64,000 bases of DNA, from contig JANYCY010000087.1 in assembly GCA_025360045.1 (NCBI GenBank), forward strand, positions 23,398 through 87,397, read 5' to 3'. How positions within the stretch are numbered: position 1 is the first letter of the stretch; the number at the start of each line of letters is the position of its first letter. Under the pieces are notes generated by a model. That model ran no database searches, was not told the origin of the DNA, and was given only the letters and a program-made list of their open reading frames with translations. Positions 1,291 through 15,666 of the stretch are shown in pieces. The position numbers and the translations under genes are program-made. This DNA is from Janthinobacterium sp. (lineage in GTDB: Bacteria > Pseudomonadota > Gammaproteobacteria > Burkholderiales > Chitinibacteraceae).

Positions 1291-1473
1291 ACGGCGGATA
1301 GAGCGTGCTGTAAAACGACTACGAAACCCGATTACTGCTAGCTATGCACTAGCTTCGCGTCGAAAAAACCTCTCAAAATCCTCGTTTACAAGTGTAAATT
1401 CCGGTTTTTCGAGATTTTTTGCCTTGTCCTCGGGCTTCTCGCTCGTTTTACAACTTAGCTAATCCGCCGTATA
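1291..1473. repeat. ERIC/IRU-like miniature inverted-repeat element (~180 bp) between the M23 gene and secA
   Basis: Imperfect 28-bp terminal inverted repeats (1291-1318 vs 1443-1470; outer 9 bp and inner 10 bp identical), an internal hairpin centred on TTTAC-AAGT-GTAAA, and a TATAC end on the minus strand. Confidence 0.55.
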
Positions 1474-1500
1474 TGCGACCGTTTTAATCAAAATTCAAGA

Positions 1501-2403
1501 TCAATCGCCAGATTTTGTAGCAGCAATATTAACTTCATTCGAGGCTGGGCCAATAAAGCGTAAGGGATTTTGTGCAATTCCCTTATAGCGAATTTCAAAG
1601 TGCAAGTGTGGGCCTGTCGAGCGCCCCGTAGATCCTAGTAAGGCAATCGTCTGGCCAGCGTTCACTTGTTCCCCTACTTTTACAGCTAATTTAGACGCAT
1701 GAGCATAGCGACTCGTGATGCCATTGCCGTGATCTAGGTCAACCATATTACCATATTGGGGATGGAAGGCCGCAAAGCTGACTTTGCCGCTGGCTGCAGC
1801 CATAATGGGCGTGCCGCTATCGCCCACAAAATCGATGCCTTCATGAAAGACCTGATTGCCATTAAAAGGATCAATCCGCTTACCAAAGCTGGATGATTGT
1901 AAGCCAACATTGAGCGGCGCTTTAGAAGGCAATTGCCATGCTTTAGGCCGCAGTAAAACACTTTCTGCCAAAGACAGCTGATCCAGCCTAGCGTTTAAAT
2001 TTTGGTTGGCTGCGTCAATTTCATTCCCCAAACTGAGGGTGGTGAGCGCCGTGCCAGCATGCTGTATGCCGCCACGTGGTACGGCTTGATTCGATAAAAA
2101 AGGCTTGATATCAATGCCGGTTTTATCGCCCACTTGGCTGGCTAAGCCGTCTAAGCGGAGTAATTTAGCTTGTAGCTCGCCAACACGGATGGCCAGCGCA
2201 TCGATTTCGCCTTGGCGGTTATTATTATTGGCGTTGGGCATAAATCGCCACAATGCTTGATTTTGCCCAGAGCGAAGAGCGGTAGTGATGGCAAATGTCA
2301 TTGACGATATGGTCAATAAAGCCATGAGCCCCAATAAAATAATTTGCTTGGCATCTAAAGAAACAGCCTTGCCAAGGCGGTTAGAAATCACGATAACATT
2401 CAT
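1501..2403 (-). CDS. M23 family metallopeptidase with N-terminal membrane anchor and coiled coil
   Basis: HEGID (HxxxD), YAH and STGPHLHFE (HxH) M23 motifs; position directly upstream of secA is typical. Confidence 0.93.
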   Translation of the reverse strand: MNVIVISNRLGKAVSLDAKQIILLGLMALLTISSMTFAITTALRSGQNQALWRFMPNANNNNRQGEIDALAIRVGELQAKLLRLDGLASQVGDKTGIDIKPFLSNQAVPRGGIQHAGTALTTLSLGNEIDAANQNLNARLDQLSLAESVLLRPKAWQLPSKAPLNVGLQSSSFGKRIDPFNGNQVFHEGIDFVGDSGTPIMAAASGKVSFAAFHPQYGNMVDLDHGNGITSRYAHASKLAVKVGEQVNAGQTIALLGSTGRSTGPHLHFEIRYKGIAQNPLRFIGPASNEVNIAATKSGD

Positions 2404-2433
2404 TTATTTATGCATCCTTACAGGCCATCAGCC

Positions 2434-2871
2434 ATGAAAAAGACCACCCTGAAGCAAGTTGGGCACGATAGGCAGCTCGCTAGCCTGATGCATCAGGTTG
2501 ACGATTTAGCCAGCGTATTAGCGGTAGTGCGCGCTGTATTGCCGCCAACGATGGCGGCGCATTGTCTTGGGGTGGCTTGGTCCGGCGATACTTTATTAAT
2601 TGGTGTAAGTGGCAGCGCTGCGGCATCAAGAGTACGCCTAAATGCGCCTCAGATTCTTGCGGCACTGCAAGCCGGCGGATGGAAAGCTACCGTAGTTCTG
2701 CCCAAGGTGCAAGTTGGCTTGCAATCCACAAATGCCATGCGAAGCAAAGACTTACACCTAAAAACGGGGGCCTGTGTTGCTTTCTCGCAATTGGCTGACA
2801 CACTGGAGGATGGGCCATTAAGGCAGGCCATTGCCTCGCTATTACATCGCCATGCAGCTAAAGACAGCTGA
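2434..2871 (+). CDS. dciA: DUF721/DciA-family helicase loader-like protein
   Basis: Divergent from M23-secA as in the conserved dciA-M23-secA arrangement; HC...G.LLIGVSGSAAASRVRL.APQIL pattern; start moved from the ORF-track 2410 to ATG 2434. Confidence 0.7.
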   Translation: MKKTTLKQVGHDRQLASLMHQVDDLASVLAVVRAVLPPTMAAHCLGVAWSGDTLLIGVSGSAAASRVRLNAPQILAALQAGGWKATVVLPKVQVGLQSTNAMRSKDLHLKTGACVAFSQLADTLEDGPLRQAIASLLHRHAAKDS

Positions 2872-2976
2872 GCTAATGGAATTAGTCTATAAACCTTGTA
2901 AGGCCCTGTAATGACATCCGATTAACTGACGTTCAGGCCCTATGCATAGAGACTAAATCGATGAAGGAGCTGGGCA

Positions 2977-3609
2977 ATGAGTTTGAATCAGGCGGGGTGT
3001 CAGGCTAAACAAGGTGGTTTTACTTTGGTCGAGCTGGCCATTGTGCTGGTGATTATTGGCTTGATCTTGGGAATGGCGTTTAAGGGCAAGGATTTGATTG
3101 ATGGGGCGAAGGTGAAATCTGCCCAAGCAAATATCAATAAAATTCAAGCGGCCATGAATATTTATTTTGAGCGCTACGGTGCTTATCCTGGTGATGGTTG
3201 CCCTGCTGCTGCAACGGTACCTACATGTAATGCAGGTGCACATAATGGTGCGATTGCTGGAGCCAATGAGATAGCCGGATTCTGGACTGTACTGACTGCT
3301 GCTCCACCTGCGGGCACTAATATTTTGCCGCTTGCCGAACGGACAAACCCATTTGGTTCAGTCTGGGCCGTGGCCGTTGGCACGCTTGCAACTAATACAG
3401 CAACAACTAGTAATTATTTGGTGGCTACTGGTATAGGGAATGCGGCAGTGGATGGACGCTTTGTGTGTGCGATGGACCAAAAGTTTGATGATGGAGTTCC
3501 AACTACAGGGACAATTCGTAGTAATGCGGGGACAGTTTATACTGCTCTTACAGATTGTTGGGCGATCACTACTGGACCGCAGTCGTTGTCAGTACAAATT
3601 TTGCCGTAG
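2977..3609 (+). CDS. Type IV pilin/pseudopilin-like protein with class III signal peptide
   Basis: G|FTLVELAIVLVIIGLILG prepilin cleavage/N-methyl-Phe motif with E5; SD AAGGAG upstream; two Cys pairs in the mature domain. Confidence 0.9.
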   Translation: MSLNQAGCQAKQGGFTLVELAIVLVIIGLILGMAFKGKDLIDGAKVKSAQANINKIQAAMNIYFERYGAYPGDGCPAAATVPTCNAGAHNGAIAGANEIAGFWTVLTAAPPAGTNILPLAERTNPFGSVWAVAVGTLATNTATTSNYLVATGIGNAAVDGRFVCAMDQKFDDGVPTTGTIRSNAGTVYTALTDCWAITTGPQSLSVQILP

Positions 3610-3705
3610 TTATATGATTTGGCTTGTATGGGCAGGAAGAAACTTGAGTTTTATTGCAATCGAGGGATTGCAAAGAGCAGTGCCCTCGATTGGTTGATTT
3701 TGGAT

Positions 3706-4383
3706 TTACTCCGTCCAATCCCCACGCAACACTTCTCTCAGCAAAGAAACCGTCACAGGTCTTTTTTCGGTTAAAGATAAACCATTGGCCGCGTCTAAAT
3801 GCTGATACAAAGTTGGCAAATCGCGCGATGCATGGCGCAGCAGATAATCCGCCAAATCATCACCTAGCTCAAAACCCAAGGCATAGGCGCGGCGTTTTAG
3901 GGCGGCGGCTTTGTCTGTGTCGGAGAGCGGTTTGAGCTGATACACCAAGCCCCAGCCTAGGCGAGTGGTTAAATCTGGCCTGAGCAGCAGCAGCATCGGT
4001 GGCTTAGGGCCAGCGGCCAGCAGCAGGCCTCCGCCATCTTTTAGCGTATTAAAGTGATCAAACAGGCGAATTTGCTCATCACGGCTAAGCGCATCCACGT
4101 TGTCTACAATGAGCGCGGCTTCTTTTGGCAAAGAGGCGGGCAAGGCATCGTGGGCTGCGTCAGTAAAAAATATTTGCGCGCCAACGGGCAGCATGGCGCG
4201 CGCGGCGGCGAGTAGGTGGCTCTTGCCACTGCCGCGTTCTCCCCAAAAATAGAGAAAACGCACGTCCCCCTCACCAAGGCTCCAACAACCAAGCTGATAC
4301 AGTAGCTCGGCGTTTTCACCACGGATAAAATCCTCAAAAGAGGGCAGGGCTGGCAGTTGCAGATCCAGCACGAGTTGCTTCAT
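3706..4383 (-). CDS. hda: DnaA regulatory inactivator Hda
   Basis: MKQLVLDL clamp-binding motif, GERGSGKSHLL Walker A, DLTTRLGWGLVY, DDLADYLLRHASRD; true start at 4383, not the ORF-track 4578. Confidence 0.92.
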   Translation of the reverse strand: MKQLVLDLQLPALPSFEDFIRGENAELLYQLGCWSLGEGDVRFLYFWGERGSGKSHLLAAARAMLPVGAQIFFTDAAHDALPASLPKEAALIVDNVDALSRDEQIRLFDHFNTLKDGGGLLLAAGPKPPMLLLLRPDLTTRLGWGLVYQLKPLSDTDKAAALKRRAYALGFELGDDLADYLLRHASRDLPTLYQHLDAANGLSLTEKRPVTVSLLREVLRGDWTE

Positions 4384-4566
4384 GCGGGAGGGGCTCCAAG
4401 AGGTCGATGACAAGCGTGCGGGTGTTTTTTCACAAGATGCGATAAAATGTCTGGCTTTGCAGCAGGTGCACCCCAAATTGGGCGCTACACCTGCACTAAT
4501 ATAACGAATGTTCGCCATTCTAGCGCAGAAGCCACTAGTGGCGCTGCCAGTTTCACGAGGCCATGC

Positions 4567-5604
4567 ATGACCAATCAAAGCTTGAGCTACCGCGATGCGG
4601 GTGTCGATATCGATGCCGGCGATCAGTTGGTTGAAAATATTAAGCCCTACGCCAAGCGTACCATGCGCCCAGAGGTGCTTAGTGGCATTGGCGGTTTCGG
4701 CGGTTTAGTCGAAATCAGTAAAAAATACCAAGAGCCTGTTTTAGTGTCCGGCACCGACGGTGTGGGCACTAAACTGAAGCTTGCTTTTGAGCTAAATCGC
4801 CACGATACCGTGGGGATTGATCTGGTTGCCATGAGTGTGAATGATATCTTGGTGCAAGGCGCCGAGCCATTATTCTTCCTCGATTACTTCGCTTGCGGCA
4901 AGCTAGATGTGCCGAATGCGACAGAAGTGATTCGCGGCATTGCCCACGGTTGCGAGCAAGCAGGTTGCGCGCTGATCGGTGGTGAAACTGCAGAAATGCC
5001 TGGTATGTACCCAGTGGGTGAATACGATTTGGCTGGCTTTGCAGTTGGTGTGGTCGAGAAAAGCAAAATCATTACTGGCGACGATATTGCACCGGGTGAT
5101 GTGGTGCTGGGCTTGGCATCTAATGGTGCACATTCCAACGGCTACAGCTTAATTCGCAAAATCATGCATCGTGCTGAAGCCGATTACGCTGCAGAATTTG
5201 ACGGCGGCAAGAGCCTTGCTGATGTAGTCATGGCTGCAACGCGCATCTACGTGAAGCCGCTGTTGAAACTTATGCAAGCTTTGCCGGTCAAGGGTATGGC
5301 GCATATTACTGGTGGCGGGATCAGCGAAAACGTACCGCGTGTACTGCCAAATAATGTCGTTGCTGCCATCGATGCCAAATCTTGGACCATGCCTAAGTTA
5401 TTCCAATGGCTGCAAAAAGAAGGCAATGTGGACGCGCAAGAAATGTACCGCACCTTTAACTGTGGCGTGGGTATGGTGGTGATTATGGCTGCAGATCAAG
5501 CTGCCGCCGCGATTGCCCTGCTTGAAGCCGAAGGTGAAACCGTTTACACCATGGGTACGATTCGTGCCCGCGTGGGTGATGAGCACCAGACGCAAGTTGC
5601 TTAA
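4567..5604 (+). CDS. purM: Phosphoribosylformylglycinamidine cyclo-ligase (AIR synthase)
   Basis: [48 protein letters not shown]. Confidence 0.98.
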
Positions 5605-5716: not shown

Positions 5717-6352
5717 ATGAAAAATATTGTTATCTTGATTTCTGGCCGTGGCAGCAATATGCAAGCCATTGTGGATGCACAAATCGCAGGCGCAAATATC
5801 TGCGCCGTGATTGCTAATCGCCCCGATGCAGCAGGTTTGGCTTGGGCCGCAGAGCGTGGCATTGCCACTGCCGTGCTTGATCATAAGCTTTACGCTGGCC
5901 GTGAGGCCTTTGATGCCGCTCTCACCGCACTGATTGATGGCTATGCACCTGATTTAATCGTGCTGGCGGGCTTTATGCGGATTCTGACCGCAGGCTTTGT
6001 GAATCACTATGCGGGCCGCCTGATTAATATCCATCCTTCCCTGTTGCCTGCTTACACTGGCCTGCATACGCACGAACGTGCCTTGGCTGATGGCGTGAAA
6101 ATTGCGGGCTGTACGGTCCATTTTGTGACGGCCGAGTTAGATCATGGCCCTATTATTTTGCAAGCGGCTCTGGCCGTGCTGGATGACGATACGGTCGCTA
6201 GCTTATCCCGCCGAATGCTGGAGCAAGAGCATTTGATTTATCCGCAAGCGGTACGCTGGTTTGTGGAAGATCGCTTAAAGTTGGTGAATGGTAGGGTTCA
6301 TGTAGATAGCCCTGCGCCTGCTGCGGTATTGATTGCACCTCCGGTGCTTTAA
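5717..6352 (+). CDS. purN: Phosphoribosylglycinamide formyltransferase
   Basis: ILISGRGSNMQAI, LAGFMRIL, NIHPSLLP, GCTVHFVTAELDHGPII. Confidence 0.98.
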   Translation: MKNIVILISGRGSNMQAIVDAQIAGANICAVIANRPDAAGLAWAAERGIATAVLDHKLYAGREAFDAALTALIDGYAPDLIVLAGFMRILTAGFVNHYAGRLINIHPSLLPAYTGLHTHERALADGVKIAGCTVHFVTAELDHGPIILQAALAVLDDDTVASLSRRMLEQEHLIYPQAVRWFVEDRLKLVNGRVHVDSPAPAAVLIAPPVL

Positions 6353-7503
6353 TGCTGCGCTGGCCTGGATTGTTGCTGGTAGCTGCTGCTCTGCTGTCCC
6401 TGCTATTGCATCTGGGCTGGATCTTTAACGAGCAAATTTACGCTTGGCTGACGCAGCAACCCTACGCCGAGAGCGAGCTAAAAAAAGTCACGCAAAAATT
6501 GAGCGATATTGCACAGGCAGATGATGCTCGTCCTGCTGGTTTGAAAGGGATTAAACCAGTAGATCATCAGCTGGTGTATTTGCACCGTGGGCCAGTGCAA
6601 CAAGTGCCTGAGAAGCCTGTAGTGCGGGTGGCCAAAAAATCCCCGACCAAGATTACTGCAAGTCGTGCATCTGCAGTTGAGCAGGTAGTGAGCAGTGTTG
6701 TGGCCCATGCCGCAAGTGAAGTTGCAAAAGAAGTGGTGGAGGCAACGGTAGCAAGCAGCGTTAAACCCGTGGCATTGATTGCCTCGGCGCTCGTTGAAGA
6801 AGAATTACCTCCGCTTAAAGAAAGCCCCTTGGTCACTGAGCAAACTTATCCCGCAGCGGTAGAAATTACCTATGCTTATGGGATCTTCCCGATTCGGATG
6901 AGCTGGCAGGCCGTAAATGGCCAATACTCATTGAAGCTGCGAGGCGCTTTGTTTAGCAAATCACGTACTTTTGTGAGTGATGGTGAAGTAGGGCAAAAAG
7001 GGGTAATCCCGCATCGATTCGCCGATTATCGTGACGAAAAATTGATTAATGAGGCCGTGTTTAATTGGGAAGACAAACAAGTCACCATTAAAGATGGCGG
7101 CAGTAGCAAGGTTGAGGAGTTAAAAGCAGGCGATCAGGATATTTTCTCTGCCGCCTTTCAATTGGCCTTACAAGGCTCGCGGATGAAAGATTTTACTTTT
7201 ACCGTAGCCAGTGGCCGTAAGATTTATAAAGATGTGCCGTTTGAAATTAGCGGCCAAGCCAGCCTGCGATTAGGCGATAAACAAATCGAAGCCATTTTGC
7301 TACGAGGTCGTTTTGAAGACCGTACTTTTGATTTTTGGCTGGCACCACAGTGGCACAATATGCCAGTACGAATGACCTTATCACTGGGTAGCGAAGGTAG
7401 CTTCGATATCTGGGCTAATGATATAAAAATTAATGGGGAAATGGTGCTTGAGCCGCAAAGCGGCAACCCTAACTCCAACTCCAACCGCATGATGCGAAGA
7501 TAA
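6352..7503 (+). CDS. DUF3108-like exported/membrane-anchored protein
   Basis: N-terminal hydrophobic helix, low-complexity linker, beta-rich C-terminal domain (F.W, DIFSAAFQL, WLAPQWHNMPVRM); conserved position after purN; TAATG coupling. Confidence 0.65.
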   Translation: MLRWPGLLLVAAALLSLLLHLGWIFNEQIYAWLTQQPYAESELKKVTQKLSDIAQADDARPAGLKGIKPVDHQLVYLHRGPVQQVPEKPVVRVAKKSPTKITASRASAVEQVVSSVVAHAASEVAKEVVEATVASSVKPVALIASALVEEELPPLKESPLVTEQTYPAAVEITYAYGIFPIRMSWQAVNGQYSLKLRGALFSKSRTFVSDGEVGQKGVIPHRFADYRDEKLINEAVFNWEDKQVTIKDGGSSKVEELKAGDQDIFSAAFQLALQGSRMKDFTFTVASGRKIYKDVPFEISGQASLRLGDKQIEAILLRGRFEDRTFDFWLAPQWHNMPVRMTLSLGSEGSFDIWANDIKINGEMVLEPQSGNPNSNSNRMMRR

Positions 7504-7508
7504 AAGAC

Positions 7509-8777
7509 ATGATTGCTTTAAATAATACCCGTTACCACGCCGCTATTTCTGTTCTATCCGAAATGCTGGTGTTTGCCGCCCCGTCTGATGCCACCATGTC
7601 GCGTTTTTTTCGCAGCAATCCCAATCTGGGCGGCCAAGATCGCCATATGATTGCCGAGTGCGTGTACGGCATTTTGCGTAACAAAATTCGCCTTGAGTGG
7701 GTTTTAGGTGGCCCAGCGAATGCGCGCAGCCTGCTCACTGCTTACTTAGTGGTGGTAGAGCGCCGTAATCTGCGTGAATGTGGTGATTGGTTTCCAGACA
7801 CAGAAAAAGACAATTTTGCCCTGTGTAAAAGCAAAAAACTCGCCGAAGCACCGGTTTATGTGCGCGCCGACTTGCCGGAATGGGTAGTGAGCGATCTGCT
7901 CGCAGGCAATATGAACGACGCCGATATTCTGGCCCTAGGTGCTGGCCTGCAAGGTGCAGCCGCGCTTGATCTGCGGGTAAACAGCTTAAAAGCCAAGCGC
8001 GAGCAAGTCGCTGCCGAGTTGCTGGATGTAGGTGGTGTAGAAACCACGCCAACGCCTTATTCCCCTTGGGGCCTGCGTGTAACGGGCAAGCCAGCCATTA
8101 ATAAATACCGCGCCTTTACCGAAGGCCGTGTAGAAGTACAAGACGAAGGCAGCCAGCTTTTGGGCCTGCTTACCGGCGCAAAGCGCGGCCAAATGGTAGT
8201 GGATTTCTGCGCGGGTGCGGGTGGTAAAACCCTGCTGCTGGGCGCAATGATGAATTCTAGCGGCCGCTTGTACGCCTTTGATGTATCCGAAAAACGCCTG
8301 AATAACTTTAAGCCACGTTTGGCCCGCTCCGGCCTTTCTAACGTGAGTGCGCAGCTTATTTCTAGCGAAAACGATCAGAAAATCAAACGTTTAGTCGGCA
8401 AAATCGATTCAGTTTTGGTTGACGCACCTTGCTCCGGCATGGGCACAGTACGCCGCAACCCCGATCTGAAATTCCGCCAAAACCCAGCCAGCGTGCTCGA
8501 GTTGAACGCCATGCAAACCAGCATTCTGGCGTCGGCTTCACGCTTGGTAAAATCCGCAGGCCGCTTGGTTTACGCTACCTGCAGCTTCTTGCCATCCGAA
8601 AACGAAGCCATTGTTGAAGCCTTCCTTGCCGCCAACCCCGATTTCAAACTGCTGGATGCGCCAGAGCTATTGAAAGCCGAGCAAGTAGATATTCCATTGA
8701 CCGGCCCTTACTTCAAACTATCTCCACATCTGCATCAGGCTGATGCTTTCTTTGCGGCGGTAATGCAAAGAGATTGA
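7509..8777 (+). CDS. RsmB/NOP family SAM-dependent RNA m5C methyltransferase
   Basis: VQDEGSQ, DFCAGAGGKT, DAPCSGMG and YATCS catalytic Cys motifs. Confidence 0.93.
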   Translation: MIALNNTRYHAAISVLSEMLVFAAPSDATMSRFFRSNPNLGGQDRHMIAECVYGILRNKIRLEWVLGGPANARSLLTAYLVVVERRNLRECGDWFPDTEKDNFALCKSKKLAEAPVYVRADLPEWVVSDLLAGNMNDADILALGAGLQGAAALDLRVNSLKAKREQVAAELLDVGGVETTPTPYSPWGLRVTGKPAINKYRAFTEGRVEVQDEGSQLLGLLTGAKRGQMVVDFCAGAGGKTLLLGAMMNSSGRLYAFDVSEKRLNNFKPRLARSGLSNVSAQLISSENDQKIKRLVGKIDSVLVDAPCSGMGTVRRNPDLKFRQNPASVLELNAMQTSILASASRLVKSAGRLVYATCSFLPSENEAIVEAFLAANPDFKLLDAPELLKAEQVDIPLTGPYFKLSPHLHQADAFFAAVMQRD

Positions 8778-8793
8778 TTGCTTCCTTGTTAAG

Positions 8794-8823
8794 AAAAAGC
8801 CCATCACGTTGATGGGCTTTTTT
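8794..8823. terminator. Bidirectional intrinsic terminator
   Basis: AAAAAGCCCATCAC-GTT-GATGGGCTTTTTTT between convergent genes. Confidence 0.8.
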
Positions 8824-8897
8824 TGGGATAGGAATTAATTTATGGCGGAGCAAGGACACGGCTCGAAATAACTGTCCAAAATTAAGCATTCAAAACC

Positions 8898-8968
8898 CCG
8901 TCATCCCCGAGTGAATTTGTCGGGGATCCAGCAGCGCCACTAGATTCCCGCCTGCGTGGGCATGACTG
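8898..8968. repeat. dRS3-like double-hairpin repeat, copy 1 (orientation A)
   Basis: CCGTCATCCCCGAG...CGGGGATCCAG...GATTCCCGCC...GGGCATGAC; related copies at 15507, 43205 and 44749. Confidence 0.85.
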
Positions 8969-8995
8969 TATTCCGCGACATTGATAAGGGCTTAA

Positions 8996-11116
8996 TCAAG
9001 CAGGCTCACAAACTTTTTTTTGATCAAACACCAACTTGCCACGTTCCATCACCACCACTCTATCGGCCATCGCGATGGTTTCTGGTCGATGAGCAATAAT
9101 AATCCGAGTGATTTTAAGCTGCTTAATCGCGGCATTGACATGCTGCTCACGGCTAACATCTAAATGAGATGTTGCCTCGTCGAGCACAAGAATTTTTGGC
9201 TGCTTATATAATGCTCTGGCTAATAAAACACGTTGTTTTTGCCCGCCAGAAAGGGATGTTCCCATATCGCCAACAAGCGTGTTGTAAGCCATAGGCATGG
9301 TTAAAATATCGTCATGTATGGCGGCCATTAGTGCGCATTGCAGCATGCGGTTTTGATCGGGCTGTGGATCAAAGAAAGTAATATTATCTTCGATAGAGCC
9401 AGCAAATAGGCTATCGTCTTGCATCACCGTACCAAACAGGCTGCGATATTGGCTTAAACCTATTTGTCTAGGTGTTAAGCCGCCTAATTTAATCTCACCC
9501 GCTGTTGGTTCTAAAATACCCAAAATGATTTTAGCCAGTGTCGTTTTACCGCAGCCCGATCCGCCTGTAATGGCAATACATTCGCCAGCTTTAATTTGCA
9601 GATCAAAATGATCAAGCACATTAGGGTCGAGAGGTGAATATCTAAAGCCTGTGCCATTTAATGAAATATTTAAATCAGCAGGAGATTGTCCCAATACGGC
9701 TTTGGCTTCTTCTGGTTCAGCCAAAACAATATCGGCTAAGCGCTCGCCGTGTAACTTTAATAAACGGAACTCTAAAAATTTATCAATTAAGCCAGCCATA
9801 CGGCTACTAAATTGATCTTTATAGGATAAATAGGCAAATAGCATCCCGACGCTAAGGCTAGAATTCATAACGGCCAAAGCCCCCAGCCAAATGACAATAC
9901 TTCTTTCAAATCCAAATAATAATGTTTGGCCATTTTGAAAAATAATCAGCATCTTTTGCTGGCTTAAGTGGCTATTAAACTGATTAACCAGTTGATTTAG
10001 CCAAACAACTCGCCGTTCTTCTACACGGTTAAATAGTTTTACACTCTGAATACCACGCACACTTTCCATAAAACTTGATTGTGCTTTAGCGGTATGAATC
10101 ATTTCTTCTTGCGATACAGCACGCATGGGTCTGAATAAGGCAAAACGCATCAATGCATAGATTAAGACCGCAGCTATGGTGATGGCCGCTAGCTTTACGC
10201 TATAGAGCAGCATCATAATCAGCGTGCCAATTACTAATACGCCATCAATGGCGGCTTCAACAAAACTATTGGTCAGTGTGCGTTGAATGGTGTCAATGGA
10301 TTGAAAGCGTGAAACAACATCCCCCAAATGGCGTTTTTCAAACCAACTCACTGGCAAAGATAATAAATGGCTAAATACTCGTGCCGCCCATTGATAGCCC
10401 AAGCTGGCACTCATAGCCATCAACACCCAACCGCGTAATGTGCCAATCACGACTTGCACAATAATTAATAGGCCAAAGCCCAGCCCCAATACCATCAGCA
10501 GGTCTTTATCTTGTGCAACTAATACTTCATCGACCACCCATTGCATTTGAAAAGGCAGAGCGATGGCGCAGAGTTGCAGTAATAGAGTGAGAAAGAAAGC
10601 TTGAACTAACGAACGCTTTAAGCCACTGACTTTGCCAAATAGCTGGCTAAAACGTAATGGGCGTGTTTCTTCTTGGTGGGTGAAGGCGCTGGTGGGAGTG
10701 AGTTCTAATGCGATACCAGTAAAGTGCTTACTGAATGCTTGCAAGCTTAATTCGTGCTTGCCTATGGCTGGATCATGAATGATTGCGGAATTTTTTGTGA
10801 CTTCAATTAGCACAACAAAATGGCTCATATCCCAATGCAAAATACACGGCAATTTGAGTTGAGTAAGATGCTCCATTTCTAGTTTTAATGGGCGACTGGC
10901 TAATTCCAAATGTTTGGCAATATCCATTAAATGCTTGAGTGTTGCGCCTTTTAAAGAAGGAGAAAATTGCCGCCGCAAACTATTTAAATCACGCTTATCG
11001 CCACAATGCGCGGCAATCATTGCCAAGCAGGCGAGGCCACATTCGGTGGATTCTGTTTGTAAAATAACTGGGGTGCTGGTACGCCACCCCATATTTAATG
11101 CGGGTAAATAATTCAT
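8996..11116 (-). CDS. Peptidase-containing ABC transporter (PCAT, CvaB/MchF-like) for double-glycine peptides
   Basis: N-terminal C39 domain (QTESTECGLACL, CILHWDMSHFVVL), TM domain, NBD with GGSGCGKT, LSGGQKQR and ILVLDEATS; start set at MNYLP (11116) because the ORF-track extension runs into a REP. Confidence 0.96.
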   Translation of the reverse strand: MNYLPALNMGWRTSTPVILQTESTECGLACLAMIAAHCGDKRDLNSLRRQFSPSLKGATLKHLMDIAKHLELASRPLKLEMEHLTQLKLPCILHWDMSHFVVLIEVTKNSAIIHDPAIGKHELSLQAFSKHFTGIALELTPTSAFTHQEETRPLRFSQLFGKVSGLKRSLVQAFFLTLLLQLCAIALPFQMQWVVDEVLVAQDKDLLMVLGLGFGLLIIVQVVIGTLRGWVLMAMSASLGYQWAARVFSHLLSLPVSWFEKRHLGDVVSRFQSIDTIQRTLTNSFVEAAIDGVLVIGTLIMMLLYSVKLAAITIAAVLIYALMRFALFRPMRAVSQEEMIHTAKAQSSFMESVRGIQSVKLFNRVEERRVVWLNQLVNQFNSHLSQQKMLIIFQNGQTLLFGFERSIVIWLGALAVMNSSLSVGMLFAYLSYKDQFSSRMAGLIDKFLEFRLLKLHGERLADIVLAEPEEAKAVLGQSPADLNISLNGTGFRYSPLDPNVLDHFDLQIKAGECIAITGGSGCGKTTLAKIILGILEPTAGEIKLGGLTPRQIGLSQYRSLFGTVMQDDSLFAGSIEDNITFFDPQPDQNRMLQCALMAAIHDDILTMPMAYNTLVGDMGTSLSGGQKQRVLLARALYKQPKILVLDEATSHLDVSREQHVNAAIKQLKITRIIIAHRPETIAMADRVVVMERGKLVFDQKKVCEPA

Positions 11117-11143
11117 TAGTGTGCTCAATAAAAGGCGTAGCTT

Positions 11144-11202
11144 GTAGGGCGGGTGCAACCCGCGAGCGATGCTGAAAAATACGCGGGTTGCACCCGCCCT
11201 AC
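11144..11202. repeat. GTAG-type REP doublet (REPIN, class 1) between the HlyD and PCAT genes
   Basis: GTAGGGCGGGTGCAACCCGCG...CGCGGGTTGCACCCGCCCTAC perfect inverted arms. Confidence 0.9.
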
Positions 11203-11266
11203 GAAAAAGTCATGTGTTGTATTGGATCAAATTACTGTGCAAGGCGCGCTCGCACGTGAGTAAGCC

Positions 11267-12505
11267 CTAAACCCTTTTCCCCGCACTAATTAATGGCTCA
11301 AACAGCCATTCAATAATCCGGCGGCGGTCTAATTCCACACTGGCTTCTAAACGCATGCCGGGTTTGAAATACTGCGTTTTTCCATAAGCCTGTAAAGATT
11401 CAGCATCAAGCTTTACTCGCACCCGATACAGCGGCTCGCCATTGGCCAAACCCAGTACACTGGGGTCGGTAGTGGCGTCCGAAACCTCACTAACAATACC
11501 GCCTTGCTGGCCAAATTTTTGATAGGGGAAGGCATGCAGGCGCAAATAAACGGCTTGGCCGGTTTTTAAAAAACCTATTGCTGAGCTGGGTGCGTAGAGC
11601 TGAGCTTCTAAATGACTACCTGCAGGCAGCAGCGTGGCTAAGGCAGTATTGGGCTCGACGCGATTACCTTGATGGCTGTTGATCGCTGCGACGACCCCAG
11701 ATGCAGGGGCTGTAACAATAAATCGTCGCTGACCTTCGTTTTCTGCTTGTGCTTGCGAGAGGGTGGAGATCTCTCTTTGCAAAGCACTGATTTGTGATTG
11801 GCTGCGCAATGGTAGCGTTGCTAGCTCGCTTTTTAAGCCAGAGAACTCACGTTGTAGGGCCATTTGATTACGAGTTGTGCTGGCGTATCGGGATTGTAAA
11901 TCGAGCAATTCTTCCTGCTTTTGTTGAATCTGCAAGCTGGAAACAAAGCCTTGCAACGATTGAAACTTGGCGAGGGTTTGCTCGGCCAGATGAACTCGCT
12001 GCTTGCCTAAGCTCACTTCTTGCTGGGTTTGTGCCATTTCTTGCTGCAGCTCTAGCAGATGCCGGCTAAGGTTTTGTGCCTGATCGCCAGCTAGCGTGCG
12101 TAAATAGCCTATTTCATTTTGTAAGTTATTGGTTTTTTCTGTAAGCGACGCATTGCCACGAGCCAGTGCCCCACCACCCCCTGCTGTTTCGCGCTCACCA
12201 CTCAAAACAAACAAAACCTGCCCTGCGACTACGCTTTGTCCTTCACTCACCCTTTGCTCTAGCAGGGTAGCGGCAGTAGGCGTATAGACTTTTAACTCCC
12301 CATATTGAGGGGCAATCAAGCCGCTTAATGTCGCTTTGCGTGAGTATTGGCTTAAAAACAAAAAAGTGATAATAATCAATGATAATAAACAAAATATACT
12401 AATTATTAACCCTGTTTTAAACGGTGAAATTAAAAGAATATTACCGTTTAATTGTGCTCTGCTATTTTCTAGTACGGCACTGCGATAGAGACTGGATCGT
12501 TGCAT
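11267..12505 (-). CDS. HlyD-family membrane fusion protein (CvaA/MchE-like)
   Basis: Single N-terminal TM, long coiled coil, APASGVV lipoyl-like motif, AFPYQKFGQQGG.V, LKPGM-like FKPGMRLEA; directly upstream of the PCAT. Confidence 0.95.
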   Translation of the reverse strand: MQRSSLYRSAVLENSRAQLNGNILLISPFKTGLIISIFCLLSLIIITFLFLSQYSRKATLSGLIAPQYGELKVYTPTAATLLEQRVSEGQSVVAGQVLFVLSGERETAGGGGALARGNASLTEKTNNLQNEIGYLRTLAGDQAQNLSRHLLELQQEMAQTQQEVSLGKQRVHLAEQTLAKFQSLQGFVSSLQIQQKQEELLDLQSRYASTTRNQMALQREFSGLKSELATLPLRSQSQISALQREISTLSQAQAENEGQRRFIVTAPASGVVAAINSHQGNRVEPNTALATLLPAGSHLEAQLYAPSSAIGFLKTGQAVYLRLHAFPYQKFGQQGGIVSEVSDATTDPSVLGLANGEPLYRVRVKLDAESLQAYGKTQYFKPGMRLEASVELDRRRIIEWLFEPLISAGKRV

Positions 12506-12542
12506 TTTAAAAAACTTAATAAAAATAAATGATAAGTAGATA

Positions 12543-12615
12543 TTGACGTAGGTATTTTTTTTTTTGCAATAATTTGTTCAGCTTTTTGAAAGAAAGCTTG
12601 TTGCAAGCTTGATGC
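12543..12615 (+). promoter_or_regulatory. Candidate promoter/operator of the bacteriocin precursor in an AT-rich divergent region
   Basis: TTGACG (12543-12548), T11 tract (12555-12565), AATAAT (12568-12573) and tandem 11-mers AAGCTTGTTGC/AAGCTTGATGC (12594-12615). Confidence 0.4.
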
Positions 12616-12647
12616 TTGTTTGATAAACTTAAATGGAAGTATGAAAA

Positions 12648-12863
12648 ATGCAAGAATTGAATATGATGGAAGTTGGAATGGTGAGTGGTGGTGGAGATGC
12701 AAATGATGCGTGTGTCAATGCTTCTATAGGTTTTTATGGAGCATTAGGTGGCGGGGTTGCCGGTGCAGGCTCATTTGGTTTTGGTGCGATTGCTGGTGCA
12801 ACTTTTGGTTCAGCTGTAGGTGGGTGGGTGGGCAAGCGGCTTTGCAATATGTTCTTTAATTAA
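12648..12863 (+). CDS. Double-glycine-leader bacteriocin/class II microcin precursor (15-aa leader + 56-aa core)
   Basis: Leader MQELNMMEVGMVSGG fits the M-x-x-L-x3-E-hyd-x2-V-S-G-G consensus; Gly/Ala-rich core with two Cys; SD-like GGAAG 8 nt upstream; divergent from PCAT+HlyD. Confidence 0.9.
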   Translation: MQELNMMEVGMVSGGGDANDACVNASIGFYGALGGGVAGAGSFGFGAIAGATFGSAVGGWVGKRLCNMFFN

Positions 12864-12877
12864 GGTTGGCTTAAGTG

Positions 12878-12912
12878 GCTAAGCCATCTTTGTGGTGGCT
12901 TGGCTTTGTTTG
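12878..12912 (+). terminator. Hairpin with U-rich tail between precursor and immunity candidate
   Basis: GCTAAGCCATC-TTTGT-GGTGGCTTGGC (11 bp including G-U pairs) followed by TTTGTTTG. Confidence 0.5.
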
Positions 12913-12946
12913 AAAGGATTGGTTTTATTTTTAGGGCTGTTTGGAT

Positions 12947-13135
12947 ATGCTAAAAAATTTCTTTGCTAGCATTGGTTTGCTAGCTGTCGCATTGGATGTA
13001 AATTTGTACTTTGGCTTTGTGGAGGGGGTTGCTCCATGGGTTAAATATTTTGGTGGAATAGTACTGCTAGCGATAATAATTTTTTCAAATAGAAACAAAG
13101 AGTTGAGGCTTGGCTCCGTAAAAGTAGTCGAATAA
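12947..13135 (+). CDS. Small two-TM membrane protein, candidate bacteriocin immunity protein (62 aa)
   Basis: Two hydrophobic segments (FFASIGLLAVALDVNLYFGFV; WVKYFGGIVLLAIIIFS) and a basic tail; immediately downstream of the precursor. Confidence 0.65.
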   Translation: MLKNFFASIGLLAVALDVNLYFGFVEGVAPWVKYFGGIVLLAIIIFSNRNKELRLGSVKVVE

Positions 13136-13347
13136 TTATTTGGTTTAGGCTAATGAATCTAGTTGGCAAGTGGTTAATTGCTGGGCCGTGGTGGGGGAAA
13201 CTGGGAACAGACCATGGTTAATTTTTAACTGCAAGTTGAACAAATATTAAATTTTTATAGAATGACAGCAGCTGAGCTGCTTTATCGTGATGTAGAAGCG
13301 CCTCAACTGTAAAATACTCAGCTTAATATGTTTTTTTTAAAAACTGC

Positions 13348-14427
13348 ATGCCTGACTCCCAATATTGCCAATTCCGCCTTCGCCTCGCCACAAGCGCCAT
13401 TCGCGAATTGCTTTCTGCCCTAAAACATAATGCCTTGATTGTGTGTGCCTCTGCTGGCATTGGCTTGCTAGGGCTATTAGCCTTTATTGCACTGCCCTTG
13501 TTTTATGCACCTTTATTATCTTGGCCCAAGGCATTGGCAACGGTGCTTGGGCAGTCGGCATTAATGGCTTTGCCGGTGCTTTTGCTTAAAACCACGATCT
13601 TGCCTATGCATATTCGGCCGTGGTTGCGGGCCTTGCCGATTAGTCGCTTTGACTTATGGATGGCCAATGCCTTGGTTTGTGGGCGTTGGATTGCTATTTT
13701 GGCTGGCTTTTATGCAGTTTCGGTGGCGATTTGGTTGTGGCAGTTTCCGCCGTGGCTACAGCCGGTGTGGTATTGGGGCGTGCTGAATGTGTGCTTGCTG
13801 CTGTTGATTAGCTGGGTGTTGGGCACGCTGATTTTGCAGTTTGAATATCAGCCCAAGGCCAAGGCGCTGGCCGTGCCGTCGGCTTTGCGCCTTGTGGCGC
13901 GTTGGCAGGGCTGGCGCTTGGCGTTTCCGCTGTTGATATTGCCGTTTTTTCGGGCAGGAAAGCTGCATATCGCGCTGCGGCAAATTTTTTTGCTCGTGCT
14001 TAGCACATCGACGCTACTTGCATGGTTTTGTCATCAGCAGTTGCATATTGCCGGCGCGCTGCTGGCTTTTTTGTTTAGCGTGAGTTTTGTGATGCTGATT
14101 AGCTTAGGGGATGCGGCGCTTAAGCTGCAGTATCGCCATTTACAGCCGCATATTCAGGCTTGGCCAGTGCAGGCGCAGATGATTAGCCATAGTGCGCGGG
14201 TGTTGGCGGCCTTGCCGTTATTACTAGTCATTGGGCTGTTTTTGCTGCTCGCCGTGCAAAATGAGGCTTTGATTAGCCTTAGGGTGATGTGGGTGTATTG
14301 CTCGGTTGCCTTGCTTGGTCATTTCACAATGATTGCTTTTAGCCAACTGGGCAGTCAGCTACGCGCCATGTTGTTGGTGTTAACCATGGGTATTTTATCT
14401 GCCGCAGGAAGTGAATTATGGCTTTAG
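13348..14427 (+). CDS. Polytopic membrane protein, probable ABC permease
   Basis: About 9-10 hydrophobic segments; LRALPISR motif typical of ABC-2-like permeases; overlaps the downstream ATPase by 10 nt. Confidence 0.7.
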   Translation: MPDSQYCQFRLRLATSAIRELLSALKHNALIVCASAGIGLLGLLAFIALPLFYAPLLSWPKALATVLGQSALMALPVLLLKTTILPMHIRPWLRALPISRFDLWMANALVCGRWIAILAGFYAVSVAIWLWQFPPWLQPVWYWGVLNVCLLLLISWVLGTLILQFEYQPKAKALAVPSALRLVARWQGWRLAFPLLILPFFRAGKLHIALRQIFLLVLSTSTLLAWFCHQQLHIAGALLAFLFSVSFVMLISLGDAALKLQYRHLQPHIQAWPVQAQMISHSARVLAALPLLLVIGLFLLLAVQNEALISLRVMWVYCSVALLGHFTMIAFSQLGSQLRAMLLVLTMGILSAAGSELWL

Positions 14428-15029
14428 CTTTACAGATTGATGCACTGGATTTCTCCTACGCTGGGCGGGCGATTTTTACTGAATGGGGCCATCGTTTTCA
14501 GCTGGGGATTACTTGGCTGCGTGGCAGTAATGGCTCGGGTAAAACCACTTTGCTGAAGATTATCGGCGGGGCAATGGCGGCTCATGCGGGGGAAATTAAG
14601 CTGGGCGATTTGGAGTGCGCGGCTCAGCCGCTGGATTATCGGCGCAAGGTGTTTTTGTGCGCGGGTGAAGCACCTGCTTTGCCGTGGTTAAAAACACGTG
14701 AGTTGTTTGATTTGTATTTATCACTCTACCCCGTGGCGCAGCTCGATAATTTTCACCGCCATTTAGCTGCTTTTGGTTTGCATTCAGTATTGGATCAGCC
14801 AGTGAGCACGCTGTCTTTGGGCCAGCATAAGAAAATGCAGCTGGCGATTGCTTTGGCTTTGCCGGTGAGCTTGTTATTACTAGACGAGCCATTTAATGGC
14901 GTGGATCAGGCGTCATTGGCTTATTTGCAGACGCAATTGGCGCTGACGCAGCGCTTAGCGCAGCAGACCATTATATTAACGAGTCATGTACAGCCTGAGA
15001 TTGCGATTGTGGAGCAGGTGTTTCTGTAG
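14418..15029 (+). CDS. Stand-alone ABC ATP-binding protein (short, 203 aa)
   Basis: GSNGSGKT Walker A, LSLGQ signature, LLLLDEP Walker B, LTSH H-loop. Confidence 0.92.
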   Translation: MALALQIDALDFSYAGRAIFTEWGHRFQLGITWLRGSNGSGKTTLLKIIGGAMAAHAGEIKLGDLECAAQPLDYRRKVFLCAGEAPALPWLKTRELFDLYLSLYPVAQLDNFHRHLAAFGLHSVLDQPVSTLSLGQHKKMQLAIALALPVSLLLLDEPFNGVDQASLAYLQTQLALTQRLAQQTIILTSHVQPEIAIVEQVFL

Positions 15030-15064: not shown

Positions 15065-15089
15065 AAAAGTGCTTTGCTCAGCAGTGGTG

Positions 15090-15506: not shown

Positions 15507-15581
15507 CGTCATTCCCGCGTGCCTTTGGCGGGAATCCAGTCGCGCTGCTGGATCCCCGACTAAAACACTCGAGGATGACGG
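15507..15581. repeat. dRS3-like repeat, copy 2 (orientation B, inverted relative to copy 1)
   Basis: CGTCATTCCCGCG...GGCGGGAATCCAG...CTGGATCCCCGAC...GAGGATGACGG; its reverse complement aligns with 8898-8968. Confidence 0.88.
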
Positions 15582-15631
15582 TTTTATTTGGAATATATCA
15601 TTTTGGAAAGTTGTTTCGAGCTACATCTTAA

Positions 15632-15666
15632 GCAGAAAAAAACCCATCACTCGATGGGTTTTTTGC
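15632..15666. terminator. Intrinsic terminator of the S9 peptidase gene
   Basis: GCAGAAAAAAACCCATCAC-TC-GATGGGTTTTTTGC. Confidence 0.8.

Follow-up and report, generated by a model that had tools for sequence, protein, structure and literature searches.

What does the accessory, AT-rich module between rsmB and a conserved 79-aa open reading frame (ORF), orf79, encode in a freshwater betaproteobacterium, and which of the neighboring genes belong to it? The genes lie at 8996-15029 of a 64,000-nt stretch of DNA (hereafter, the window; GCA_025360045.1, JANYCY010000087.1, positions 23,398 to 87,397), which is deposited under Janthinobacterium sp. and which we read as Iodobacter chromosome (Neisseriales/Chromobacteriaceae in the naming of NCBI); the window comes from one contig of a 4.02-Mb genome assembly in 97 contigs. 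An initial annotation, made from the letters alone, had described a complete class II microcin system here, consisting of a peptidase-containing ATP-binding cassette (ABC) transporter (PCAT), an HlyD-type membrane fusion protein, a double-glycine precursor, a 62-aa ORF with two transmembrane (TM) segments, and an ABC permease/ATPase pair, with TolC supplied in trans. All six ORFs proved to be open and to lie where it had placed them. From their sequences, we consider it likely that the locus is a class IIa-microcin-like bacteriocin system, because the domains and motifs of its proteins, the homology of its exporter to CvaAB, the leader motif of its precursor, the conservation of the cysteine residues in the core peptide, and the replacement of the core together with the small ORF in a related species all point the same way. 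We regard the ABC pair as a probable bystander.

The exporter and its adaptor

The PCAT gene (8996-11158, minus strand) encodes a 720-aa protein in which a C39 peptidase domain is followed by a 6-TM ABC exporter domain and an ATPase domain, as judged from Pfam and NCBIfam matches (Peptidase_C39, E 2e-37; ABC_membrane, E 6e-39; ABC_tran, E 7e-31). The protein aligns end to end with PCAT1 (PDB 4RY2). In this alignment, the catalytic Cys (TECGLACL) and His (MSHFVVL), which the initial annotation had read as intact, are indeed kept, as is the Asp (IHDP), and the Walker A, signature, Walker B, and H-loop motifs of the ATPase are kept as well. Aligned over 95% of its length, the PCAT shares 42.2% of its residues with annotated CvaB and 42.0% with MchF. 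It is 96% identical to the PCAT of Iodobacter arcticus CCUG 62945, a sister genome from which we assign the window to Iodobacter. Translation probably starts at the ATG at 11116 (MNYLPALNMGW), 14 codons downstream of the TTG that opens the ORF, because this TTG falls within a repeat palindrome (described below).

The adjacent gene (11267-12505, minus strand) encodes a 412-aa periplasmic adaptor of the HlyD/CvaA type, which matches HlyD_3 and HlyD_D23, has one N-terminal TM segment, and is homologous to CvaA over its full length (20% identity, E 3e-22). An outer-membrane partner would have to be supplied from elsewhere: nine OEP-family genes are present in the rest of the genome and none in the locus. 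The PCAT, the membrane fusion protein, the double-glycine precursor, and the small membrane ORF make up the complete set that had been proposed, with TolC in trans. The transporter would cut the leader after its Gly-Gly and export the core.

The precursor and its core peptide

The precursor gene (12648-12863, plus strand) is divergent from the exporter genes, starts 142 bp from the HlyD start, and has a GGAAG ribosome-binding site ahead of it. It encodes 71 aa, MQELNMMEVGMVSGG/GDANDAC...NMFFN, in which the first 15 aa (MQELNMMEVGMVSGG; 12648-12692) form a double-glycine leader and the remaining 56 aa (12693-12863) form the core; the core length and its GDANDAC start agree with what had been read at first. 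Class II microcin signals have been described by the pattern M..[KEQI]x[IL]x9G[GAS] (PMC12219008), and residues Q2, L4, and G14-G15 of the leader match Motif 2 of that work. The core has a mass of 5336.9 Da (5.34 kDa), is rich in glycine (27%) and alanine (18%), contains GxxxG motifs, has a grand average of hydropathy of +0.61, and ends in ...GKRLCNMFFN. Its two cysteine residues, at core positions 7 and 51, lie near both ends. An AlphaFold2 (AF2) model of the precursor, of low confidence (predicted local distance difference test [pLDDT] 59), has a helix at 18-41, a turn, and a helix at 46-70; such a hairpin would set Cys22 opposite Cys66, which is suggestive only.

The peptide is nearly an orphan. 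A word-indexed search of 5.8 billion proteins returned the query itself only, neither a back-translated scan of GTDB genomes nor a tblastn search of plasmids found a relative of the precursor, and the gene is single-copy in its own genome. When 1.84 billion representative proteins were scanned in full with phmmer, one relative of the core emerged, P0008 (E 1.4e-4), which is 46% identical to it (pairwise E 1e-13) and keeps both cysteines. Apart from a probable disulfide bond between Cys7 and Cys51, the mature peptide would be unmodified: as the initial annotation had noted, there is no modification enzyme in the locus, and our ORF and domain search between rsmB and orf79 found none.

Among Pfam families, the top match of the precursor is that of microcin V (MccV, PF17508), which is insignificant (E 0.13, 13.3 bits vs a cut-off of 27); membership in this family was ruled out by the score below the gathering threshold together with the comparison to CvaC given below. 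The features of a siderophore (class IIb) microcin are absent, as the core has no Ser-rich C-terminus and the locus has no mchA/mceC or mceIJ-type genes. Each feature of the class IIa type that can be checked by sequence is present here: a precursor of less than about 10 kDa with a double-glycine signal of 15-19 aa, a PCAT with a catalytic C39 domain, a membrane fusion protein of the CvaA/HlyD type, and TolC-type outer-membrane partners available in the genome.

The small two-TM ORF

The small ORF (12947-13135, plus strand) begins 84 nt 3' of the precursor and encodes 62 aa from the ATG at 12947, or 64 aa from a TTG at 12941. Its hydropathy profile peaks at two hydrophobic segments, which are followed by a basic C-terminal tail, and from this topology and its position next to the precursor it is presumed to be the immunity protein. 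Searches of 5.8 billion proteins and of 56 genomes belonging to the family gave no homolog, and there is no similarity to Cvi or to the small ORF beside P0008. Small two-TM ORFs also follow the precursor in I. arcticus, in Janthinobacterium, and in the locus of P0008, with no sequence likeness detected where they were compared.

Between the precursor and the small ORF, at 12877-12905 (plus strand), is a hairpin of 12 bp followed by a U-rich run, which would be a terminator or an attenuator. The segment 12860-12946 folds with a minimum free energy of -25.1 kcal/mol (z = -3.07).

Variable cargo at the rsmB/orf79 site

I. arcticus CCUG 62945 has the same PCAT and HlyD genes at the matching site, with rsmB on one side and, on the other, a conserved 79-aa ORF that neighbors an S9 peptidase gene. 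By BLASTN, the window matches it at 87.5% identity in one uninterrupted stretch, 6002-12692, and the similarity resumes at 15086. The last position of this stretch, 12692, is the final base of the leader's second Gly codon. The I. arcticus leader is nearly identical to that of the window (MKMKELTMSEVEIVSGG), and it is joined to an unrelated, Cys-free, Gly/Ala-rich core of 58 aa, followed by an unrelated 74-aa two-TM ORF. The small TM ORF has thus been replaced along with the core, as is expected of the toxin and the immunity protein of a bacteriocin.

A third allele is found in two loci from JGI metagenomes, L110 (3300060288; 4327-4425) and L111 (3300060281; 4039-4137). They share the exporter, the promoter, and the leader (MQELNMVEVEEVSGG) with the window and carry a hydrophobic core of 17 aa (IVWFVAAAMVLYSAYAE); no small TM ORF follows, and the ABC permease is directly next. 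In L110, an ORF for an IS3-type transposase adjoins the PCAT gene. The leader is thus kept in all three alleles, and the exporter and leader form a platform that carries at least three unrelated cargoes.

The site has other contents as well. In two Iodobacter-like loci, L131 (JGI 3300080851; 1415-5048) and L132, the site holds a cluster resembling those for peptides that are made by ribosomes and modified after translation (RiPPs), with a 57-aa (TVGG)x7 precursor, a radical-SAM/SPASM maturase whose best match, below the cut-off, is the PapB family, a 2-oxoglutarate-Fe oxygenase, and an AzlC gene. The ABC permease adjacent to this cluster appears to be split into ORFs of 119 aa and 220 aa. A 174-aa GNAT (Acetyltransf_3) gene occupies the site in genomes of other Iodobacter species (G006, L123 4832-5356; G004; G007; G010). 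With at least five alternative contents, the site is most simply read as a recombination hotspot 3' of the rsmB terminator. No tRNA gene that could serve as an integration site was found.

The ABC permease/ATPase pair

Downstream of the small ORF, after a gap of 212 bp, lie genes for a polytopic ABC permease of about nine TM segments (13348-14427, plus strand) and a short CcmA-like ABC ATPase of 203 aa (14418-15029, plus strand). The two ORFs overlap by 10 nt, and the ATPase would be translationally coupled to the permease. The permease has no Pfam match even at E 10, and its AF2 model is unusable (pLDDT 40.6). Its family comprises about five members, roughly 88% identical, all of them Iodobacter-like and confined to this hotspot.

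The initial annotation had counted this pair as part of a "five-gene-plus" architecture with possibly two immunity layers, and the pair could indeed be imagined to act as a McbEF- or LanFEG-like second layer of immunity or efflux. Its adjacency to the bacteriocin genes on the same strand suggests this, as do its place directly 3' of the precursor (32 aa) in L110/L111, two loci that have no small TM ORF, the restriction of the permease family to the rsmB/orf79 hotspot of Iodobacter, and the fact that two of the three kinds of left-hand neighbor of the pair are secreted-peptide clusters. The pair does not, however, co-occur consistently with producer genes, as would be expected of such a pump. 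It stands alone between rsmB and orf79 in G009 (GCA_026399755.1), where similarity to the window starts at the permease start codon; it adjoins the unrelated RiPP-like cluster in the metagenome contigs of L131 and L132; and it is missing from I. arcticus, which has a comparable Gly-rich core, and from the locus of P0008, the only one with a homologous core. The 212-bp gap also sets the pair apart from the 62-aa ORF, recombination breakpoints fall at the 5' end of the permease, and the lack of a Pfam family or a usable model for this protein gives no help to the idea.

The composition of the genes also sets the pair apart. The initial annotation had described the whole block as AT-richer than its flanks, and this holds for the PCAT, HlyD, precursor, and small ORF genes (GC 0.37-0.475 vs 0.487 for the genome), whose GC contents at third codon positions (GC3) are 0.40, 0.44, 0.31, and 0.35, respectively. 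The ABC pair is an exception, with GC of 0.505-0.517 and GC3 of 0.60 for the permease and 0.55 for the ATPase, within the range of the flanking core genes (0.47-0.62). Because of this host-like GC3 (0.55-0.60 vs 0.31-0.44 for the PCAT module), the solitary occurrence in G009, the different neighbors in L131/L132, and the absence from I. arcticus and L127 (the locus of P0008), we place the pair outside the module, as a separate resident of the hotspot and most likely a bystander. A role as a second immunity layer, under which the solitary G009 copy would count as orphan immunity, is doubtful.

The control region and the surrounding repeats

The divergent control region (12506-12647; 142 bp) is kept in I. 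arcticus and in L110/L111. It contains a -35-like TTGACG (12543-12548), a T11 tract (12555-12565), an extended -10-like TGcAATAAT (12565-12573), and a palindrome, AAGCTTGTTGCAAGCTT, at 12594-12610, ahead of the GGAAG site. The T11 tract, which separates TTGACG/TTGACA from TGcAATAAT, is the longest A/T homopolymer of the 4.02-Mb genome; it has 11 residues in the window, I. arcticus, and L110 and 10 in L111. As a hypothesis only, the tract could be a slippage-prone promoter spacer that gives phase variation; the one-base difference may also be an assembly error. The extended -10 element may render the -35 element dispensable. A scan for sigma-70 promoters found sites no more numerous than in shuffled sequence. 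A Fur box in the control region was rejected (best match, 10/19), and no Rfam family matches the locus.

The spacer between the HlyD and PCAT genes contains a REPIN-like perfect palindrome with arms of 21 nt (11144-11202). The arm has 59-78 copies in the genome, and the same element lies at the same place in I. arcticus, which implies that the module has been resident since before the two species split.

A pair of inverted repeats of 92-95 nt, 81% identical, brackets the PCAT module and orf79, with the left copy at 8861-8952 and the right copy at 15527-15621. I. arcticus has both copies. In G009 and G006, two genomes without the PCAT module, the right one is missing. We did not adopt these repeats as transposon ends, since orf79, a core gene, lies between them and about 100 copies of their 55-nt core occur genome-wide. 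The ATTCCCGCC motif of this core presumably resembles neisserial dRS3-type repeats. In addition, two near-alike terminator hairpins (AAAAAGCCCATCA...TGATGGGCTTTTT) lie at 8795-8825, after rsmB, and at 15637-15664, between the right inverted repeat and the S9 peptidase gene.

Related cassettes in other bacteria

P0008 is encoded in L127 (GCA_039708975.1, JAYFSJ010000009.1; 8001-11959), where the order is precursor, 63-aa two-TM ORF, HlyD, and PCAT. The PCAT of this cassette is 51% identical to that of the window, and its own nearest PCATs are in a Pseudogulbenkiania metagenome-assembled genome (MAG) and a Burkholderiales MAG. The cassette follows prophage tail, holin, and CHAP-endolysin genes and precedes a serine recombinase gene, and it looks like prophage cargo. 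On a plasmid of Janthinobacterium lividum (NZ_CP139977), the leader MSIQEMTVSEIDEVNGG, a Gly/Ala-rich core, and a 70-aa two-TM ORF precede the PCAT and HlyD genes. In G017, of the same family, ...LTMEEVNDVSGG and a 41-aa core lie beside homologous PCAT and HlyD genes (L015, 10684-11931); a 293-aa P-loop ORF, which may be HPr-kinase-like, adjoins this peptide. In the Pseudogulbenkiania MAG, MKELTALEISIVSGG is joined to a larger core, and the next ORF has 281 aa. The betaproteobacterial cassettes of I. arcticus, the J. lividum plasmid, the Pseudogulbenkiania MAG, and GCA_039708975.1, all of them unannotated, share with the window a single PCAT/HlyD lineage (51-96% identity), similar leaders (..EL.M.EV..VSGG), and, after the precursor, a small TM ORF (or, in the Pseudogulbenkiania MAG, the 281-aa ORF); they differ from it in their cores, with the sole exception of GCA_039708975.1 (46%). 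More widely, PCATs 43-57% identical to that of the window occur in Janthinobacterium, Burkholderia, Xanthomonas, Acinetobacter, Pantoea, Erwinia, Yersinia, Serratia, and many MAGs.

The window's own genome has a second double-glycine system, outside the window (G000:C87:41294-49716). It comprises precursors beginning MTMYQLDDKEVLMVDGG... and MRKLEVVELNCVVGG..., a CxxxCxxC radical-SAM-like ORF, an HlyD gene, a PCAT 45% identical to that of the window, and a TolC-like gene that is seemingly interrupted by a TAG codon.

Discussion

Based on these features, we propose the following scheme for the locus. The 71-aa precursor would be expressed from a promoter within the 142-bp divergent region. The C39 domain of the PCAT would bind the 15-aa leader and cut after Gly14-Gly15, and the 56-aa core would be exported in one step by the PCAT together with the HlyD adaptor and an outer-membrane protein of the TolC family encoded elsewhere. 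A probable Cys7-Cys51 disulfide would hold together a helical hairpin with many GxxxG motifs. Once taken up through a receptor, the peptide would most likely kill related bacteria by insertion into the inner membrane or by an action at it, and the 62-aa two-TM protein, encoded past a leaky terminator, would protect the producer. Export, the disulfide, antibacterial activity, the target, and immunity are in this scheme what we infer from the genes and their neighbors.

The resemblance to the microcin V (colicin V) system of Escherichia coli, with CvaC, Cvi, CvaA, CvaB, and chromosomal TolC, runs through the predicted machinery: a PCAT of the C39-active type, a membrane fusion protein homologous to CvaA, a 15-aa double-glycine leader, TolC in trans, a small Gly-rich core with two cysteines that is predicted to be unmodified, and a small membrane ORF beside the precursor. 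The differences lie in the cargo and the layout. The core is not detectably related to CvaC, nor the small ORF to Cvi, and the core has 56 aa vs 88 aa. The cysteine residues of CvaC form a C-terminal loop, whereas those of the window core are 44 apart and span the whole peptide. The window genes are chromosomal and betaproteobacterial, with precursor and exporter divergent, whereas in the ColV record examined cvi-cvaC lies downstream of cvaAB on the opposite strand.

Several observations weigh against our interpretation. No significant match links the core to microcin V (BLASTP against CvaC, E 28), and no Pfam or NCBIfam family matches it above threshold. The predicted hairpin comes from a model of low confidence. 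The immunity role of the 62-aa ORF is assigned from position and topology. The -35 and -10 elements are 19 nt apart (18 nt in L111), a poor spacing unless the extended -10 suffices. Finally, double-glycine peptides exported by PCATs can also be signals or matrix proteins.

This last point opens a different view of the peptide, as a signal or a surface or matrix peptide, whether a pheromone, an EbfG-type peptide, or a biofilm component of the self-assembling microcin type. PCATs do export such cargo, and the 17-aa core of L110/L111, which is hydrophobic and is not followed by a small TM ORF, resembles a pheromone more than a toxin. Acinetobacter baumannii microcins are reported to self-assemble in biofilm (PMC13188072). 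Our ORF and domain search, however, found no sensor kinase or response regulator adjoining the locus, and the Gly/Ala-rich GxxxG core, the two kept cysteines, and the co-varying two-TM ORF are typical features of a bacteriocin and its immunity protein. We therefore regard a signaling or structural role as quite unlikely. The locus might also be intact but silent or decaying in this strain. The suboptimal 19-nt promoter spacer and the REPIN that has colonized the HlyD-PCAT spacer would fit such a cryptic cassette. Against this, all ORFs are open with their catalytic motifs intact, the REPIN is common to I. arcticus and so has long been tolerated, and the exporter is 96% identical in protein at 87.5% DNA identity between the two species, which indicates purifying selection; we judge decay or silence to be distinctly improbable. 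A more ambitious scheme would join the observations at the hotspot: it would be a cassette-exchange platform in which a fixed exporter, promoter, and leader take up new cores through recombination precisely at the Gly-Gly codon, with slippage at the T11 tract perhaps modulating expression and the ABC pair serving as a shared peptide-resistance pump that is orphan immunity in non-producers. As a whole, this scheme seems unlikely to us.

With a class IIa-like bacteriocin system as the preferred reading, it remains to be asked how new the locus is. The initial annotation had laid weight on its occurrence outside the Enterobacteriaceae, and this weight cannot be upheld. By now, class II microcins have been called ubiquitous in bacteria (Parker et al. 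2025, PMC12219008); Mcc17978 of Acinetobacter is a validated class II microcin (PMC10333792); and candidates from Xanthomonas, Pantoea, and Erwinia have been predicted and tested (PMC13174018). A like order of precursor, two-TM ORF, HlyD, and PCAT also recurs in Janthinobacterium, in the Pseudogulbenkiania MAG, and in further members of the same GTDB family. With this expanded set, the window shares the double-glycine signal, PCAT/membrane fusion protein export, an adjacent small membrane protein as the putative immunity protein, diverse cores, and occurrence beyond Enterobacteriaceae; it differs in that its peptide family has a single known relative. Our literature searches found no paper treating Iodobacter or a betaproteobacterial class II microcin. 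Of the suggested undescribed antibacterial system, the near-orphan peptide is new; the machinery, layout, and logic are of the microcin V type. The locus fills a gap in description without representing a novel type of system, and loci like it are common among Proteobacteria.

The understanding of this type of system is therefore unchanged. If the peptide is active, the locus would offer an experimentally tractable class II microcin of a betaproteobacterium, and the peptide would found a very small family, with two members among 1.84 billion representative proteins. The alleles that combine one leader and exporter with unrelated cores illustrate how such systems diversify, and they provide a natural set of cargoes for probing how promiscuous PCAT export is.

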